From the NCBI GenBank assembly GCA_001791745.1, contig MGFG01000032.1:3775-67774 (forward strand): a stretch of 64,000 nucleotides of DNA, in the 5' to 3' direction. The notes under the pieces were generated by a model. That model worked only from the letters and a program-made list of their open reading frames with translations, was not told the DNA's origin and ran no database searches. Positions within the stretch are counted from its first letter, which is position 1. Each line of letters opens with the position of its first letter. The position numbers and the translations under genes are program-made. Positions 12,014-64,000 of this stretch are shown one piece after another. Origin of the DNA: Candidatus Uhrbacteria bacterium RIFOXYC2_FULL_47_19. GTDB lineage: Bacteria > Patescibacteriota > Patescibacteriia > SG8-24.

Positions 12014-13476
12014 CTAGAATCAGATTTGCGCCTTCGCCAACTGGATTTTTACATGTTGGCGGATTACGTACTGCACTCTATTGCGAACTTTTCGCCCGGA
12101 AGAATAATGGGCGACTTATTTTGCGTATTGAGGACACTGATCGTACTAGGTTAGTGGATGGTGGTGTTGAGAATATCATTAGAACATTGGAGTGGGCTGG
12201 GATTAAGCCGGATGAAGGTCCTTATGTAGACGATAAGGGTCAATTGAAGCAACGGGGTGATTATGGACCCTACATACAATCCGAAAGATTAGACATCTAC
12301 AAAAAGTATATTGATCAACTTTTAGAGAATGGCAAGGCTTATCGTTGTTATTGTACACCAGAAAGACTAGAGGAGATGCGAGATCATCAGAAGTCTGAAG
12401 GGACTCAGACTATGTATGATCGTCGTTGTCGCAACTTGGATTATGAGATTTGTAAAAAATTGGAAGATGAAGGTCGACCATTTGTTGTTAGATTAGCAAT
12501 GCCAACAGAAGGTGTAACAGTTTGGGATGACCTAATACGTGGTCATATTGAGATTTCGAATGATCAAATTGATGATCAGGTATTACTAAAATCAGATGGA
12601 TTTCCGACCTATCATCTAGCTGTTGTGGTCGACGACCATCTTATGGGAATAACACATGTTATTCGGGGTGAGGAATGGTGTCCTTCAACACCTAAGCATG
12701 TTGTGCTCTATGAAGCTTTTGGTTGGGAACAGCCAAAGTTTGCACATCTTCCATTACTTTTGAATCGGGATCGTTCTAAGCTCTCAAAGCGTCAAGGTGA
12801 TGTAGCCGTTGAGGATTATCGTGATAAGGGCTATCTATCTGAAGCCTTGGTTAATTTTGTAGCTTTGTTGGGTTGGAACCCGAATGGTGACCGGGAAATT
12901 TATGATCGTCAGGAACTAGTTGACTCTTTTGATCTATCTAAAATTAATCGTGGTGGAGCTGTCTTTGATTTAGAGAAACTTAATTGGATGAATGGTGAGT
13001 ACATAAAAAAACTATCAGATGAAGAATTGGTTGATTTAGTAAAACCATTCTTTGAGAAGGTAGGTTTGGGAACAGATCAAGAGATAATTGCTAAAGCCGC
13101 GTTACTTGAGCGTAGTCGAGCTAAGACACTATCAGAGATACCGGCTGCATTACTTTTCATATTTGTCGATCCTGAAGTGGATCCAGATTTACTTCCATGG
13201 AAGAAATCAACGCCAGAGATTGCCAAGGATCGTTTGGTGGGGCTAAGAGAATATATTTTGGGGTTGGATTCAAAAATTTTTGATAGCCAGGAGTTGATTG
13301 AAATGGAATTATTGGGCTTTATTACTAAGATGGGTTGGACCAATGCTGAGACACTTTGGCCGATGCGTGTGGCATTAACTGGATTGTCTGTATCGCCAGG
13401 TCCGTTCGAAGTAGCCTGGGTTTTAGGCCAAAAGGTAACTATTCAGCGTCTTGAGTCGGCAATAGTCAAACTTTAG
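12010..13476 (+). CDS. gltX: Glutamyl-tRNA synthetase.
   Basis: Class I HIGH region (PSPTGFLHVGG) and the KMSKS variant KLSKRQG. Its start overlaps the preceding stop (ATGA). Confidence 0.9.
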   Translation: MTRIRFAPSPTGFLHVGGLRTALYCELFARKNNGRLILRIEDTDRTRLVDGGVENIIRTLEWAGIKPDEGPYVDDKGQLKQRGDYGPYIQSERLDIYKKYIDQLLENGKAYRCYCTPERLEEMRDHQKSEGTQTMYDRRCRNLDYEICKKLEDEGRPFVVRLAMPTEGVTVWDDLIRGHIEISNDQIDDQVLLKSDGFPTYHLAVVVDDHLMGITHVIRGEEWCPSTPKHVVLYEAFGWEQPKFAHLPLLLNRDRSKLSKRQGDVAVEDYRDKGYLSEALVNFVALLGWNPNGDREIYDRQELVDSFDLSKINRGGAVFDLEKLNWMNGEYIKKLSDEELVDLVKPFFEKVGLGTDQEIIAKAALLERSRAKTLSEIPAALLFIFVDPEVDPDLLPWKKSTPEIAKDRLVGLREYILGLDSKIFDSQELIEMELLGFITKMGWTNAETLWPMRVALTGLSVSPGPFEVAWVLGQKVTIQRLESAIVKL

Positions 13477-59808: not shown

Positions 59809-60180
59809 ATGGACATCCTCGTTTTTGGCAACACAGTATACGAACCAGACTCACTACCGCTTAAAGTTCTACCTGATTTACGTCGTCAACTACCTGGCAA
59901 TCGTTTTCTAACTCTTGATCCTAATGAAGAGTGGGACATAAGTGGTGATCTGATTGTCATTGACACAGTCATCAATCTGAGTGAACCAACAATCTTTAAG
60001 TCACTCAATGCTTTCCAGACGTCACCACGCTGCTCGACCCATGACTTTGACGCGCTAGCCCAGCTACGACTACTCGACAAACTAGGCCGAATCGGCCGAG
60101 TGACGGTAATCGGCCTGCCGCCGCAGATGAGTGAAGCTGCAGCTTCGGACTTCATTGCTACCGTATTGGCGGAATTATGA
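59809..60180 (+). CDS. [NiFe]-hydrogenase maturation endopeptidase (HycI/HoxW family).
   Basis: MDILVFGNTVYEPD...LIVIDTV...STHDFDALAQLRLL...RVTVIGLPP aligns with HycI. The conserved Glu/Asp/His nickel ligands are in place. Confidence 0.7.
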   Translation: MDILVFGNTVYEPDSLPLKVLPDLRRQLPGNRFLTLDPNEEWDISGDLIVIDTVINLSEPTIFKSLNAFQTSPRCSTHDFDALAQLRLLDKLGRIGRVTVIGLPPQMSEAAASDFIATVLAEL

Positions 60181-60191
60181 TATCGATTACA

Positions 60192-60228
60192 GAAAAACGC
60201 CCTATTTGGGAGCGTTTCTTTTTTTCTA
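60192..60228. terminator. Bidirectional terminator between the maturation protease gene and the hydrogenase operon 3' end.
   Basis: AAACGCCC-tattt-GGGAGCGTTT, followed by TCTTTTTTTC. Confidence 0.5.
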
Positions 60229-60233
60229 TATTT

Positions 60234-60437
60234 TCAAGAACACTCACTTAATTGACTCGCAAGGCAGGGCACTAGATTTTTCAACAACACAATGCGTTCG
60301 TCCGTATCGTTAATGAACGTCAACTTGTCATCAAGTAAGTAAAAGAACAGTCTAGCTGAGGTTAATAATGTAAAGATACCAATAATCAACCCGAGAACAA
60401 CGACCGGAATCAGGAGCAGGAGTCTTGCCTTACTCAT
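60234..60437 (-). CDS. Small single-TM protein (67 aa), translationally coupled (ATGA overlap) to the 3' end of the hydrogenase large-subunit gene.
   Basis: A 4-nt start/stop overlap with the large-subunit gene, and a hydrophobic helix LLLLIPVVVLGLIIGIFTLL. Confidence 0.35.
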   Translation of the reverse strand: MSKARLLLLIPVVVLGLIIGIFTLLTSARLFFYLLDDKLTFINDTDERIVLLKNLVPCLASQLSECS

Positions 60438-61729
60438 ACCAAATCCCAGTTAACTTTTAGGAAGTGCGTGGCGCAACTCATACAAGGGTCGTAGGCTCGG
60501 ATGAGTTTCTCGATCTCATGCTCAATGGTCGACCTATCCGTGTCAGGCAGCAGTCCATCGACCAATCCGGCGATGTCACGCTCGATGTTAATTTGATTTT
60601 GCCCAGTAGGAACGATGACCTCGCCACGTCGAACCAAACCATCTTCTCCGACTACAATCTTGTGATAGAGCGTCCCGCGTGGCGCCTCGACTACGCCAAT
60701 TCCCTCTCCTTCACAAATCTCCGGCTTGATAGGCGTCTCGATCACAAATTCACGCCCCTGCAATAGTTCGATCGCATGATCAATGCTATGCAAAAGTTCG
60801 ATCGCCTGTGCCAAGTTATTGCGGTAGATGTTGGTAGAAGGAAAAAGCTTAAGTGTCTTGCTAAGTGACTTCCTAGTCTGCGGGTGTAACGTCTCTTTAG
60901 CTAGATTTAATCGAGCCAGCGAACCAACCATAAATGGTCTCCCTTCGTGTGTATAGGCCGAAGCGGTCGAGTACGGTAACACTACGTGTTCCAGTAGATC
61001 CGGATAACGCTTCTCGTTATACCGTTCGCCCTGACTCGTAACCACCTCACCGTCTAGGAACCAATAATTTCCCTCCGGTACCAACGCCTGATAGTCCATG
61101 TCGCGATCGAAACTCCAGTCGCAACGTTCAAAGGTCGCGATGCAACGCAAAGCCGCCGGACGTGCTGCCTCCAATTTGCGCACTGCTTCCTCGATCTCCT
61201 CTTTGGATGGCAAATGATTGAATCCACCGAGAGTGGGAAAAGTCGCATGAACCGACCGACCGGCCACGATCTGAGCCAGGTAATTACCTGCTGCCTTAAT
61301 TTCAAAACAATCGTGCAAATGCTGATGCTGTTCTTCATCATTCTCATCGAAAGAGAGAAAATTGTCTTTGTTGTATAGATCCGGCATGACAAAAATGTAC
61401 AGATGTAGAGCGTGATCGCGAATGTTCAATCCGTACATGGTTAGATGGCGAAGATCCATGGTCTGAAGCGACGGCTGCAAGCCAATTGCATTCTCACAAG
61501 CTTCAATAGCACACATGATATGAGCATTCGAACAAGTACCACAGATTCTCGATAGTAACGGCGGAATAGCCACGAGTGGTTTACCCTCAACCGCTTTAGA
61601 AAAGAAACGTTTATACTCCTGAATCTGATAGTGAACATGCTCTACCTTACCATCGCGAATACGTAAGTCGAGTTTGGCGTGACCTTCAACCTTACTAATG
61701 GCGTCGAGCGAGATGTCTTGAGAATGCAT
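60434..61729 (-). CDS. [NiFe]-hydrogenase large subunit (group 3-type, cytoplasmic).
   Basis: N-terminal RICGTCSNAH (RxCGxCxxxH) and C-terminal DPCMSCATH (DPCxxCxxH), followed by a 9-aa extension (FLKVNWDLV) typical of the protease-cleaved tail. Confidence 0.85.
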   Translation of the reverse strand: MHSQDISLDAISKVEGHAKLDLRIRDGKVEHVHYQIQEYKRFFSKAVEGKPLVAIPPLLSRICGTCSNAHIMCAIEACENAIGLQPSLQTMDLRHLTMYGLNIRDHALHLYIFVMPDLYNKDNFLSFDENDEEQHQHLHDCFEIKAAGNYLAQIVAGRSVHATFPTLGGFNHLPSKEEIEEAVRKLEAARPAALRCIATFERCDWSFDRDMDYQALVPEGNYWFLDGEVVTSQGERYNEKRYPDLLEHVVLPYSTASAYTHEGRPFMVGSLARLNLAKETLHPQTRKSLSKTLKLFPSTNIYRNNLAQAIELLHSIDHAIELLQGREFVIETPIKPEICEGEGIGVVEAPRGTLYHKIVVGEDGLVRRGEVIVPTGQNQINIERDIAGLVDGLLPDTDRSTIEHEIEKLIRAYDPCMSCATHFLKVNWDLV

Positions 61730-61741
61730 AGGCTTCAGGTA

Positions 61742-62251
61742 TTACTTTTCTGAGGACCAACTGGCCTTAATCTGAGCCACAGCCGAGTCAACCGTATCGA
61801 GAAAACGCTGTGGATCCATTGGACAACCTGGTACTTCGGCGTCAACCTTAATCACATCACTCAACTTGAGTACCTGATCCAAGTGACCGAAGCGTTCGAC
61901 TAGAAACTCAACATCCTGCTTCTGTTCGTCACTAAACAAATTACGTTGAGCTGATGGCATGCCAGTTACAGCACAAGAACCGATTGCAACTACCAAAGTC
62001 GCTAACTTTCTAATTTCGCGAATCTTCTCAGCTTGTGGTTCACCAGCTACAGCTCCTTCAATGAAGGCGATGTCCATTTGATCAAGAACATTGTTGGTTT
62101 GTAGTACACGAGCATGCCGGAAATCAAATAACTCACGCCACTCCTGCCAACGCTCATTTAGGAGCTCCGTCATGACAATGGTGTTATCCTCGCAACAAGC
62201 GAAACTAAACCAGCCAATACGCACTTTCCTGGGCTTGTCTTGTTCATTCAT
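61742..62251 (-). CDS. [NiFe]-hydrogenase small subunit, short HoxY-like form with the proximal cluster only.
   Basis: Cys ligands at FACCED, IGSCAVTG and VPGCPM. Size 169 aa. Confidence 0.8.
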   Translation of the reverse strand: MNEQDKPRKVRIGWFSFACCEDNTIVMTELLNERWQEWRELFDFRHARVLQTNNVLDQMDIAFIEGAVAGEPQAEKIREIRKLATLVVAIGSCAVTGMPSAQRNLFSDEQKQDVEFLVERFGHLDQVLKLSDVIKVDAEVPGCPMDPQRFLDTVDSAVAQIKASWSSEK

Positions 62252-62260
62252 AAAAATCGT

Positions 62261-63505
62261 TTAGTCTTTCGGTAAAAGTGCCATCAAATCTGATTCCGGA
62301 TCTGATAATAACTCTAGTTGATTAGAGATATTAACAGCACTCTCAATAGCCGACTTAATCGGAGCTAAATCCTCGCCACGATTAATCAGGAAAGCGCCAG
62401 CAATTCGTTGATTATTTCGAACAACTAGACAACCGTACGAGTTAGACTCCACTCGGCCACGAGGAAAAAGTTGACTATCTTTGCATCTAACCTGGCCAAC
62501 AAAAACTAAACTCAAACCAAAGCCATGAGAAGTGTATGACGACACGATCCGATAAGGCAGACGCTTGCCAAGCATATTAAGTGCAGCAGTCCGCCCTTGC
62601 TCTTGAGCATCCAACCAAGTTCCGCAAATATACGGCTCACCAATAGCTGGATCGTTTAGCTCGGCAACATCACCCGCTGCCCAAATTCCATCTAGGTTAG
62701 TTTTTAAATACTCATTGGTTCTGATACCACGACCAACCGTAATTCCAGCTTGCTCCAGCCAACCACCATCAAACTGCACACCGATACCAATTACTAGCAA
62801 ATCACAATCGATACTGGTTCCATCCTTCAATTTAACACCTTCAACTTTATCCTGACCCAAAACCTCAGCAATTTCAGAATTTAGACGAACCGTAACTCCA
62901 CCACCAATTAATGCTCGCTCGATGATCTGGCCGGCATCTTGATCCAGAACTGGTTCCCAAAAGTAAGATTCACGCACTACTACGTCAACTCCCAAGCCAG
63001 CTAATCGTAATAAGTTACACATCTCAAAACTGACGAAACCAGCACCGATGACTACCGCCCTTTTGGCGTGCTTAATTTCCGTCATGACCGCCTGTGCATC
63101 ATTTACTGTCTTCATATAGCTGACGCCGGTCTTTTCTGCCAGTCCTGGCACATTTAATTGTCTAACCGGACAACCAGTGGCCAAAAGTAATTGACCAAAA
63201 CCAAGTTCAATACCATCATCAAGTGTCACCTTATTATCTTTAGTAGAAAGCTGTTCAGCACGATGCCCAGATAAAAAATCAATTCCCCGTTCAGCATAGT
63301 GTTCCGGCTGTCTCATCCAGATTGTCTCGAACGGTATTTTACCTAAAAAAAGATTTGGTTTAGATAATAAAATACGCGAATAGAGCGGATACGGCTCATC
63401 CGAAACAATAGCCACCCGTGCGGAAGGTTTCTCTTTCTTTAACGTTTCAGCGGCGGTCGTCCCTGCGATACCGCCGCCAATAATCAGATAATCGTACTTT
63501 TCCAT
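62261..63505 (-). CDS. FAD-dependent pyridine nucleotide-disulfide-oxidoreductase-family flavoprotein (ferredoxin/rubredoxin-NAD(P) reductase-like). No redox-active CxxxxC.
   Basis: Two Rossmann dinucleotide motifs (YLIIGGGIAGTTAA and AVVIGAGFVSFE) and the GD motif (AAGDVAE). Confidence 0.75.
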   Translation of the reverse strand: MEKYDYLIIGGGIAGTTAAETLKKEKPSARVAIVSDEPYPLYSRILLSKPNLFLGKIPFETIWMRQPEHYAERGIDFLSGHRAEQLSTKDNKVTLDDGIELGFGQLLLATGCPVRQLNVPGLAEKTGVSYMKTVNDAQAVMTEIKHAKRAVVIGAGFVSFEMCNLLRLAGLGVDVVVRESYFWEPVLDQDAGQIIERALIGGGVTVRLNSEIAEVLGQDKVEGVKLKDGTSIDCDLLVIGIGVQFDGGWLEQAGITVGRGIRTNEYLKTNLDGIWAAGDVAELNDPAIGEPYICGTWLDAQEQGRTAALNMLGKRLPYRIVSSYTSHGFGLSLVFVGQVRCKDSQLFPRGRVESNSYGCLVVRNNQRIAGAFLINRGEDLAPIKSAIESAVNISNQLELLSDPESDLMALLPKD

Positions 63506-63519
63506 CTGTCGAAATTTTA

Positions 63520-63801
63520 TTAGGCCGGAAAGATCTGGTTACCGGATTCATCATAAAGATAGATGGCTCGAACCGGACAGGATTGAGCTGCAGCTAAAAG
63601 CGTATCATCAGAAATATCTCCATCTTCGAGGTCGATTTTACCAGTTTGGTCCGAAACTCGTTCACCGCTCTTTCTCTTTAATACAGCCTTTTGCTCAGCA
63701 TCGAGTTCAAATACACTACCAGCTGCTGCTACACAAGGTGCAGCTCCAATGCAACTGTCACGATCAACTTTGATACTAGCGATCTTTTTCTCTTCTGACA
63801 T
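63520..63801 (-). CDS. Small monocluster ferredoxin, likely [3Fe-4S] (three Cys).
   Basis: CIGAAPC...SCPVRAI, the Pyrococcus-type Fd pattern with Ala in place of the Asp/Cys second ligand. Confidence 0.7.
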   Translation of the reverse strand: MSEEKKIASIKVDRDSCIGAAPCVAAAGSVFELDAEQKAVLKRKSGERVSDQTGKIDLEDGDISDDTLLAAAQSCPVRAIYLYDESGNQIFPA

Positions 63802-63835
63802 AAATGTAGGATTAATTTTAAATACCTAAAAAATT

Positions 63836-64000
63836 TTATTTATCCGATTTAACCTTAGCAGCCCGTTCCCTTAATAGCCGCTCAGTTTTCTTATTACAAA
63901 TCTCAATCGCTGCATCTGGACAAATCTGCTCACAAAGTTCACAGCCAATGCAGATGGCAGTATCGATTTTGATTGCTGGTTCACCTAGTAAGCCCAGTTC
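63836..64000 (-). CDS. C-terminal part of a 4Fe-4S ferredoxin-domain protein. The gene runs off the window edge.
   Basis: Manual translation of the minus strand gives ...ELGLLGEPAIKIDTAICIGCELCEQICPDAAIEICNKKTERLLRERAAKVKSDK*, which carries a CxxCxxCxxxCP motif. Confidence 0.6.
   Translation of the reverse strand, partial: ELGLLGEPAIKIDTAICIGCELCEQICPDAAIEICNKKTERLLRERAAKVKSDK

Follow-up and report, generated by a model that had tools for sequence, protein, structure and literature searches.

Patescibacteria, also known as the Candidate Phyla Radiation (CPR), are abundant in groundwater and have a minimal metabolism. [quoted passage not shown] The locus encodes a large and a small hydrogenase subunit, a flavoprotein that is predicted to bind flavin adenine dinucleotide (FAD) and nicotinamide adenine dinucleotide with or without its phosphate (NAD(P)), ferredoxins, a putative maturation protease, and a small open reading frame (ORF) with a transmembrane (TM) helix. 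The following features are found.

63836-64000, minus strand: C-terminal fragment of a 2x[4Fe-4S] ferredoxin, 54 codons and the stop of a 107-aa gene that is truncated at the edge of the window; it opens the operon.
63520-63801, minus strand: Fd93, a single-cluster ferredoxin with three cysteines; 93 aa; Pfam Fer4_15 and Fer4_13.
62261-63505, minus strand: FAD flavoprotein; 414 aa; Pfam Pyr_redox_2, Pyr_redox, and a borderline Reductase_C.
61742-62251, minus strand: hydrogenase small subunit; 169 aa; PF01058 (Oxidored_q6).
60434-61729, minus strand: [NiFe]-hydrogenase large subunit; 431 aa; PF00374 (NiFeSe_Hases).
60234-60437, minus strand: TM ORF with one predicted TM helix; 67 aa; no Pfam or NCBIfam match.
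60193-60226, no strand assigned: hairpin flanked by runs of T on each strand, visible in the sequence AAAAACGCCCTATTTGGGAGCGTTTCTTTTTTTC itself.
59809-60180, plus strand: gene of an endopeptidase with a predicted HybD/HycI fold; 123 aa; AlphaFold2 (AF2) model and Foldseek.

In the six-frame ORF list, the minus-strand operon runs in the order 2x[4Fe-4S] ferredoxin, three-cysteine ferredoxin, flavoprotein, small subunit, large subunit, and TM ORF. The successive intergenic gaps are 35, 14, 9, 12, and -4 nt. The operon and the protease gene meet tail to tail, and the hairpin between them looks like a terminator acting in both directions. A scan for consensus promoters and terminators was uninformative, and this hairpin was missing from its output. 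An initial annotation of this DNA had already listed a 414-aa flavoprotein, a three-cysteine ferredoxin of the Pyrococcus type, and an edge-cut 2x[4Fe-4S] protein, all of which are present where it had placed them. Its account of the orientation needs correction. The protease gene, described as divergent, lies on the plus strand and is convergent with the operon, and the flavoprotein and ferredoxins, said to follow the hydrogenase subunits, precede them on the minus strand.

The large subunit carries both Ni-Fe ligand motifs. L1 reads R61-I-C-G-T-C-S-N-A-H70 and L2 reads D414-P-C-M-S-C-A-T-H422. Both motifs, including all four Ni-Fe cysteines, are invariant in 18 members of the clade. The C-terminal tail that the initial annotation had recognized is also present. 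Nine residues (FLKVNWDLV) follow the histidine of L2, and the FLKVNW part is conserved. The protein scores 88.5 bits on PF00374, against a gathering score of 25.8, and on sequence grounds it looks catalytically competent. Its top match among PDB sequences is the alpha subunit of P. furiosus sulfhydrogenase I (SHI; 9nez_D, E = 5e-63, 216 bits). The cytosolic enzyme of T. kodakarensis (5yxy) gives 206 bits, and lower matches are Mvh (163 bits), Hox-type enzymes (112-129 bits), and Frh (104 bits). The NCBIfam models ShyA and HydA give 240 and 222 bits, with equivalog cut-offs of 700 and 880. By these scores the large subunit is closest to the Pyrococcus sulfhydrogenase alpha subunit of group 3b, yet it stays far under the equivalog cut-offs.

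The small subunit had been described as short and HoxY-like, and this description holds, since its 169 aa correspond to the proximal-cluster region only. Its alignment with MvhG, SHI delta, FrhG, and HoxY covers only ~150 residues at their N-termini. Across 79 homologues, the protein is about 165 aa long and has just four conserved cysteine positions, C19, C20, C93, and C143. Three of them (C19, C93, and C143) are invariant wherever the residue is present, and position 20 is Cys in 72 homologues and Ser in five. The subunit thus appears to retain the proximal-cluster domain only, with no medial or distal clusters. Residues 19-22 of the proximal-cluster motif form a tandem CC-E-D, where SHI delta has CxxC. 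This tandem recalls the CC ligation of cluster N2 in NuoB of complex I. Reading of the N-terminus of the small subunit revealed no twin-arginine translocation (Tat) motif, and the enzyme is therefore predicted to be cytoplasmic.

Hydrogenases of this type have been reported before. In the available text of Jaffe et al. 2020 (BMC Biol 18:69, PMC7304191), two CPR-specific clades of group-3b-related hydrogenases are described. One of these clades, hyd2, forms a long branch beside group 3b in the large-subunit tree. In the same text, hyd2 has a truncated small subunit with a mean length of 164 aa and no proximal beta or gamma subunits. Some neighbouring genes encode a PF07992 FAD/NAD(P) domain, an Fe-S family lies near a subset of the loci, and a hypC-like neighbour family is found. 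The subunit composition and function of hyd2 are called 'uncertain' there. RIFOXYC2_FULL_47_19 itself is included in the genome table and the species trees of that paper.

The present locus shares with hyd2, as that text describes it, the Patescibacteria host, a large subunit related to group 3b, a small subunit of similar size (169 versus ~164 aa), the lack of beta and gamma subunits, and neighbours of the PF07992, Fe-S, and hypC-like families, so that all the features listed for hyd2 are matched. No substantive difference from the published description is seen in the available text, and the neighbour counts given below are more detailed than those in it. Matched on small-subunit size, gene content, and host, the locus is assigned to the Patescibacteria-specific hyd2 clade. 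Within hyd2, only this Uhrbacteria lineage has the 107-aa ferredoxin and the TM ORF. The novelty implied by the initial annotation is not supported, because hyd2 has been published (PMC7304191) and the usual neighbourhood of the clade already holds this flavoprotein and ferredoxin, which is largely the outcome that the annotation had named as refuting it. In the searchable library, the term 'hyd2' was found only in Jaffe 2020. The CPR group 3b enzymes modelled by Valentin-Alvarado 2024 (PMC10811913) have HyhB/G, that is, they are of the hyd1 type. The locus is thus one of a published, widespread, and biochemically uncharacterised hydrogenase type, and what remains new concerns its biochemistry and the DUF6390 protein described below.

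The comparison with classical enzymes defines what the locus lacks. With group 3b (P. furiosus SHI HydBGDA and T. kodakarensis Hyh), it shares the nearest large subunits (the alpha subunits of SHI and SHII), the predicted cytoplasmic location, a short C-terminal extension, and a presumed link to NAD(P). However, HydB/HydG (AsrA/B-like) subunits are absent, and the small subunit is 169 aa long against 261 aa in SHI, apparently without the medial and distal clusters and with CC in place of CxxC in the proximal-cluster motif. The NAD(P) module also differs, being a predicted ferredoxin reductase with the glutathione-reductase fold here and FNR/PyrK-like there. With the group 3d Hox enzymes (HoxEFUYH), the locus shares a proximal-cluster-only small subunit of HoxY size (189 aa in 5xf9_C), solubility, and the predicted delivery of electrons to an NAD(P)-reducing flavoprotein. 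However, there is no NuoE/F/G-like HoxEFU module, and the large-subunit similarity is 112-129 bits against 216 for group 3b. In agreement with the initial annotation, no NuoEF-type, HydBG-type, or hyp Pfam families are annotated in the 64-kb window and the 10 kb beyond it. Complex1_51K, 2Fe-2S_thioredx, and NuoG-type families are likewise missing from the window and the extension, so that a diaphorase of the group 3d kind is lacking there. Furthermore, no HyhB/G-like (AsrA/AsrB) or NuoEF-like family occurs among the recurrent neighbour families of 78 related loci.

The hydrogenase type is widespread in Patescibacteria. A genome scan with one genome per species found a relative in at least 558 species-level Patescibacteria genomes, and the best 80 loci were taken for comparison (handles such as L011 refer to individual loci). 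All of these 80 come from CPR metagenome-assembled genomes (MAGs) or evident mislabels, and the identity of their large subunits to that of the window is 57-93%. Large-subunit homologues at 60-74% identity number in the thousands, and every named one is from Patescibacteria. In nearly all of the 80 loci, a comparably short small subunit adjoins the large-subunit gene. The set includes TPA_asm MAGs (L013, L017, L037, L068, L082), several labelled 'uncultured Gammaproteobacteria' and many 'Saccharibacteria', which carry a Patescibacteria-type locus with the same neighbours. These taxonomic labels are probably wrong.

Gene neighbourhoods were counted in the 40 loci whose flanks reach 7.5 kb or more in each direction (full-flank loci), in which ORFs were called and then searched with the window proteins. 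All 40 have the small subunit, and 38 have a convergent protease homologue just downstream of the large subunit. A DUF6390 protein is encoded in 32. The flavoprotein is found within 8 kb in 30 loci; in 13, its gene adjoins that of the small subunit on the upstream side. Fd93 is found in 26 loci. Genes for a two-subunit 2-oxoacid:ferredoxin oxidoreductase (OFOR) accompany the hydrogenase in 18 loci, and a gene for an ADP-forming acetyl-CoA synthetase (ACD) does so in 14. The pairing of Fd93 with the flavoprotein is especially tight, as their genes adjoin in 40 of the 42 loci that have Fd93. In loci such as L026 (2849-7386) and L054 (2962-7473), the space between the Fd93-flavoprotein pair and the small-large pair is taken up by OFOR and ACD genes on the opposite strand, the identities of which are confirmed by Pfam. 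These counts support a partnership of the flavoprotein with the hydrogenase that is not accidental.

The flavoprotein has an FAD motif (GGGIAG, residues 10-15) and an NAD(P) motif (GAGFVS, residues 154-159). Pfam assigns Pyr_redox_2 (E = 9e-55, 187 bits) and Pyr_redox, and Reductase_C reaches 24 bits against a cut-off of 25. In the PDB, the protein is most similar to reductases of ferredoxin, putidaredoxin, and rubredoxin (3lxd, 3fg2, BphA4, and TodA), and AorC (8c0z_E) is also matched. The best NCBIfam match is PadH of the phenylglyoxylate:NAD+ oxidoreductase, with 202 bits against a cut-off of 475. From these matches the protein is classified as a ferredoxin-NAD(P)+ reductase of the glutathione-reductase-fold type (BphA4/PdR/ArR), within which it would form a distinct subfamily. 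No cysteine is conserved among 47 homologues. A function as a sulfur, CoA-persulfide, peroxide, or disulfide reductase, which would make the system sulfhydrogenase-like, was therefore ruled out. AorC of the Aromatoleum aldehyde oxidoreductase (AOR), PadH, and the class-I ferredoxin reductases (BphA4, PdR, and ArR) have the same fold and motifs. There, NAD(H) is linked by the flavoprotein either with a small ferredoxin or with a ferredoxin-like Fe-S subunit belonging to a larger enzyme, whereas the presumed partner enzyme here is a [NiFe]-hydrogenase. Electron transfer between NAD(P)H and ferredoxin is predicted for the flavoprotein of the window, and the tight gene pairing with Fd93 supports this prediction.

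Fd93 has exactly three cysteines, C17-x5-C23 and, farther on, C75-P (CIGAxxC...CP), and these cysteines are invariant in 41 homologues. The best PDB matches are P. furiosus ferredoxin structures (2z8q and 1siz), in which CIGDAIC is aligned to CIGAAPC of Fd93. Ala20 of Fd93 stands at the position of the ligand Asp14 of the P. furiosus ferredoxin. The earlier label of a three-cysteine ferredoxin of the Pyrococcus type is thus apt. The cluster of Fd93 may be [3Fe-4S] or [4Fe-4S] and is probably the former. In one locus (L042), an Nfu-like domain runs in frame into the Fd93 ORF.

The ferredoxin cut by the window edge is complete on longer contigs, and the rightward extension identified it as a 107-aa 2x[4Fe-4S] ferredoxin (Fd107; full gene at L001, 7571-7894). 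No hyp genes were found in this extension. The translation of the fragment in the window ends ...CIGCELCEQICPDAAIEIC...SDK, followed by the stop codon. Fd107 matches Fer4, Fer4_9, and Fer4_7 in Pfam, and its best NCBIfam matches are the delta subunit of 2-oxoglutarate:ferredoxin oxidoreductase and OorD, both under the cut-off. The protein thus resembles a PorD/OorD delta subunit in sequence. Among the related loci, it is confined to the four closest relatives, L011-L014.

Taking these data together, we hold with moderate confidence that the locus encodes a cytoplasmic, probably bidirectional [NiFe]-hydrogenase that is wired through ferredoxin and the flavoprotein, a reading based on synteny. 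Because the small subunit appears to lack medial and distal clusters, electrons would have to pass from the proximal cluster straight to an external Fe-S partner. That role would fall to Fd93, presumably co-transcribed with the hydrogenase, and in this lineage to the PorD-like Fd107 as well, which may substitute for the two missing clusters. The flavoprotein would then equilibrate ferredoxin with NAD(P)+/NAD(P)H, in place of the HyhB/HyhG (AsrA/B-like) subunits of classical group 3b. A linear chain from H2 through ferredoxin and flavoprotein to NAD(P) is plausible, and the OFOR synteny suggests that ferredoxin may be a hub rather than a simple wire. In many relatives, oxidation of pyruvate or other 2-oxoacids by OFOR would yield reduced ferredoxin and then H2, with the flavoprotein coupling the ferredoxin and NAD(P) pools. 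Since OFOR and ACD recur in synteny, the most likely physiological role, in an obligate fermenter, would be fermentative redox balancing with H2 evolution. The reverse direction, H2 uptake, is conceivable in H2-rich groundwater.

Several observations weigh against this wiring. The redox partners are predicted from synteny, and in ten of the 40 full-flank loci the 8-kb neighbourhood holds no flavoprotein. Several loci have the flavoprotein and no Fd93, so the ferredoxin is not obligatory there, and the flavoprotein may dock directly on the hydrogenase or act elsewhere. The potential of a three-cysteine, [3Fe-4S]-type ferredoxin may be too high for efficient H2 evolution. Finally, the flavoprotein has VVVRE at residues 175-179, and the Arg and the following Glu are conserved in at least 90% of homologues, a pattern that points to neither NAD nor NADP in particular.

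The loci with a flavoprotein and no ferredoxin bear on another arrangement, in which the flavoprotein, with or without a ferredoxin, would be a permanent diaphorase seated on the small subunit. It would replace HyhBG and form a stable three- or four-subunit H2:NAD(P)+ oxidoreductase, comparable with AorABC or PadEFGHI; neither a free ferredoxin pool nor OFOR would take part. The flavoprotein does resemble FAD subunits that dock on Fe-S subunits, namely AorC of AOR and PadH of phenylglyoxylate dehydrogenase, and these best family matches are permanent parts of their Fe-S enzyme complexes. The resemblance to docking FAD subunits also supports the wired reading. In the window, only 9-14 nt separate Fd93, flavoprotein, and small subunit. 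The direct position upstream of the small subunit in 13 full-flank loci fits such a complex, as do loci such as L009, which have the flavoprotein and the small and large subunits and no ferredoxin gene. However, about as many loci have the ferredoxin-flavoprotein pair at a distance of 5-7 kb, or else on the opposite side or strand, and the intervening genes are those of OFOR and ACD. A permanent subunit is also hard to reconcile with the ten loci that have no flavoprotein nearby and with the pairing of ferredoxin and flavoprotein (40 of 42), which is much tighter than that of flavoprotein and hydrogenase. We regard this stable complex as rather unlikely.

The variable position and strand of the ferredoxin-flavoprotein pair relative to the hydrogenase could be read in another way. 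The hydrogenase would be a plain ferredoxin-dependent heterodimer, and the pair would form an NAD(P)H:ferredoxin system of its own with a housekeeping task, such as serving OFOR or defence against oxidative stress, that is co-located via a common ferredoxin. The strong synteny with OFOR and ACD agrees with this, and the flavoprotein family also contains rubredoxin reductases and reductases of the NADH-oxidase type. Nevertheless, the two lie within 8 kb of each other in 75% of the loci, in Patescibacteria lineages that diverge widely, and this would be difficult to account for if they were functionally unlinked. The genes of the window itself form one tight operon, and no OFOR is found near it. 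A mere housekeeping pair is therefore improbable in our judgement, and the ferredoxin- and flavoprotein-wired hydrogenase is the reading that we carry forward.

Maturation of the enzyme is represented by the 123-aa protein. The initial annotation had proposed a HycI/HoxW-type protease, and structure prediction bears this out with a HybD/HycI fold. The AF2 model, built with ten homologues, has a mean predicted local distance difference test score (pLDDT) of 89.2. Its top Foldseek match in the PDB is HybD (1cfz; E = 4.6e-5, probability 1.00, TMq 0.67), and other matches are 2kml, 3pu6 (uncharacterized protein), HycI (2e85 and 2i8l), and a hydrogenase maturation peptidase (5ttx). Sequence searches are less sensitive to this relationship. 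The protein has no Pfam match at default thresholds, reaching 12.8 bits on PF01750 against a cut-off of 23, and its family profile gave only noise against PDB sequences. Nevertheless, 21 of 23 family members match PF01750 weakly (best E = 5e-5), and the NCBIfam NiFeSe maturation protease model matches the 123-aa protein with E = 0.002. Across 23 homologues, D14, D52, and H78 do not vary, and they appear to stand at the places expected for the metal triad of HybD (Glu16, Asp62, and His93). The model supports the identification of the protein as a hydrogenase maturation endopeptidase of the HybD/HycI fold.

The absence of hyp genes from the flank, as first noted from the sequence, is confirmed by Pfam in the window and the 10 kb beyond and by tblastn in the window. 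The tblastn queries were HypC, HypD, and HypE of L023; they found nothing in the window and, elsewhere, only L078. Matches of Hyp-motif regular expressions in the window were rejected as out-of-frame chance matches. Unbiased clustering of the neighbouring ORFs of the related loci gave no recurrent Hyp family. In L023 (9865-11921), the protease gene is directly followed by hypC, hypD, and the beginning of a hypE-like gene with an AIRS domain, and L078 has HypC near the hydrogenase (12637-12855). These are the only two of 78 loci with adjacent hyp genes. They indicate that the clade does possess the canonical maturation machinery, usually encoded at some other site, and the lack of nearby hyp genes in the window is unremarkable. 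Genes for a NifU-like protein (NifU_N with a BFD-type domain) and a NifS-like cysteine desulfurase are located near the hydrogenase in 15-16 of 78 loci (e.g., L074, 916-1578; L045, 3712-4974).

DUF6390 is a candidate maturation factor. Of its 3115 homologues, those that carry a name all come from Patescibacteria. In 14 loci, a family of ~150 aa without a Pfam match is encoded on the same strand directly after the large subunit (e.g., L053, 9367-9828; L050, 9325-9774; L043, 9346-9849). This family is a short relative of DUF6390 (hhalign probability 95.6%, E = 1e-8), and DUF6390 in its long or short form is found in 35 of the 40 full-flank loci. In the AF2 model (pLDDT 73.5), a helical N-domain is followed by a beta-barrel at the C-terminus. 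An invariant cysteine (C151 in P0192) is located near the start of the barrel, the strands of which begin at residue 154. In this model, the C-terminal domain appears HypC-like, and the invariant cysteine resembles the essential N-terminal cysteine of HypC, which suggests a functional link with HypC.

The lack of hyp genes in the 64 kb and the further 10 kb, together with the reduced state of CPR genomes, could also be taken as a sign of a non-catalytic or degenerate hydrogenase-like protein, that is, a sensor or a relic. Ehr-like proteins of CPR without the metal-binding cysteines are in fact reported in the available text of Jaffe et al. (PMC7304191). In the hydrogenase studied here, however, the four Ni-Fe cysteines and the whole of L1 and L2 are invariant. 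The endopeptidase is kept in 38 of 40 loci and the apparently HypC-like DUF6390 in 32 of 40, and one member of the clade has adjacent hypC-hypD-hypE. A relic is very hard to reconcile with these facts, and we give this explanation hardly any weight. A wider proposal is that hyd2 constitutes a functionally distinct, unclassified subgroup of group 3. It would be defined by a two-subunit core with a CC-ligated proximal cluster, by modular ferredoxin wiring to a PadH/AorC-like FAD subunit and OFOR, and by DUF6390 as its own factor for maturation of the large subunit, in which a helical domain rich in Cys and His would be fused to a HypC-like barrel with a cysteine inside it. We put this forward tentatively, as a possibility that we presently doubt somewhat more than we believe.

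The TM ORF stands apart from the conserved genes. The initial annotation had described it as translationally coupled to the large subunit. The ORF does overlap the large-subunit stop by 4 nt, but it is not part of the conserved module. Its sole homologue among the 78 related loci is in L011 (9245-9745), whose large subunit is 93% identical. The L011 counterpart is membrane-anchored and ~150 aa long when counted from the matching ATG, and by BLAST coordinates the window ORF appears to be a copy with an in-frame deletion of ~86 codons. The TM ORF is thus lineage-specific. A role as a membrane anchor of the hydrogenase was ruled out, as the ORF is missing from 76 of the 78 related loci and the window copy is seemingly internally deleted.

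As for the wider surroundings, a large-subunit protein identical to that of the window is present on 14 public contigs. Upstream of the Fd107 gene, the proteins encoded on the longer contigs include a dihydroorotate dehydrogenase, an SRAP protein, and a DUF6390 protein. Elsewhere in the window, Pfam annotation of the called genes identified the operon of an F-type ATP synthase, genes of a Suf system and for tRNA synthetases, and cell-wall genes.

The core of the enzyme has only ~600 residues and could be of interest as a minimal NAD(P)- or ferredoxin-linked hydrogenase. If the proposed wiring is true, it would be a [NiFe] core that exchanged its diaphorase for another flavoprotein. Since at least 558 species-level genomes carry this hydrogenase type, it is probably one of the main redox valves of Patescibacteria. 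The wiring, if true, would provide a concrete model of how fermenters of the CPR shed or gain reducing power.

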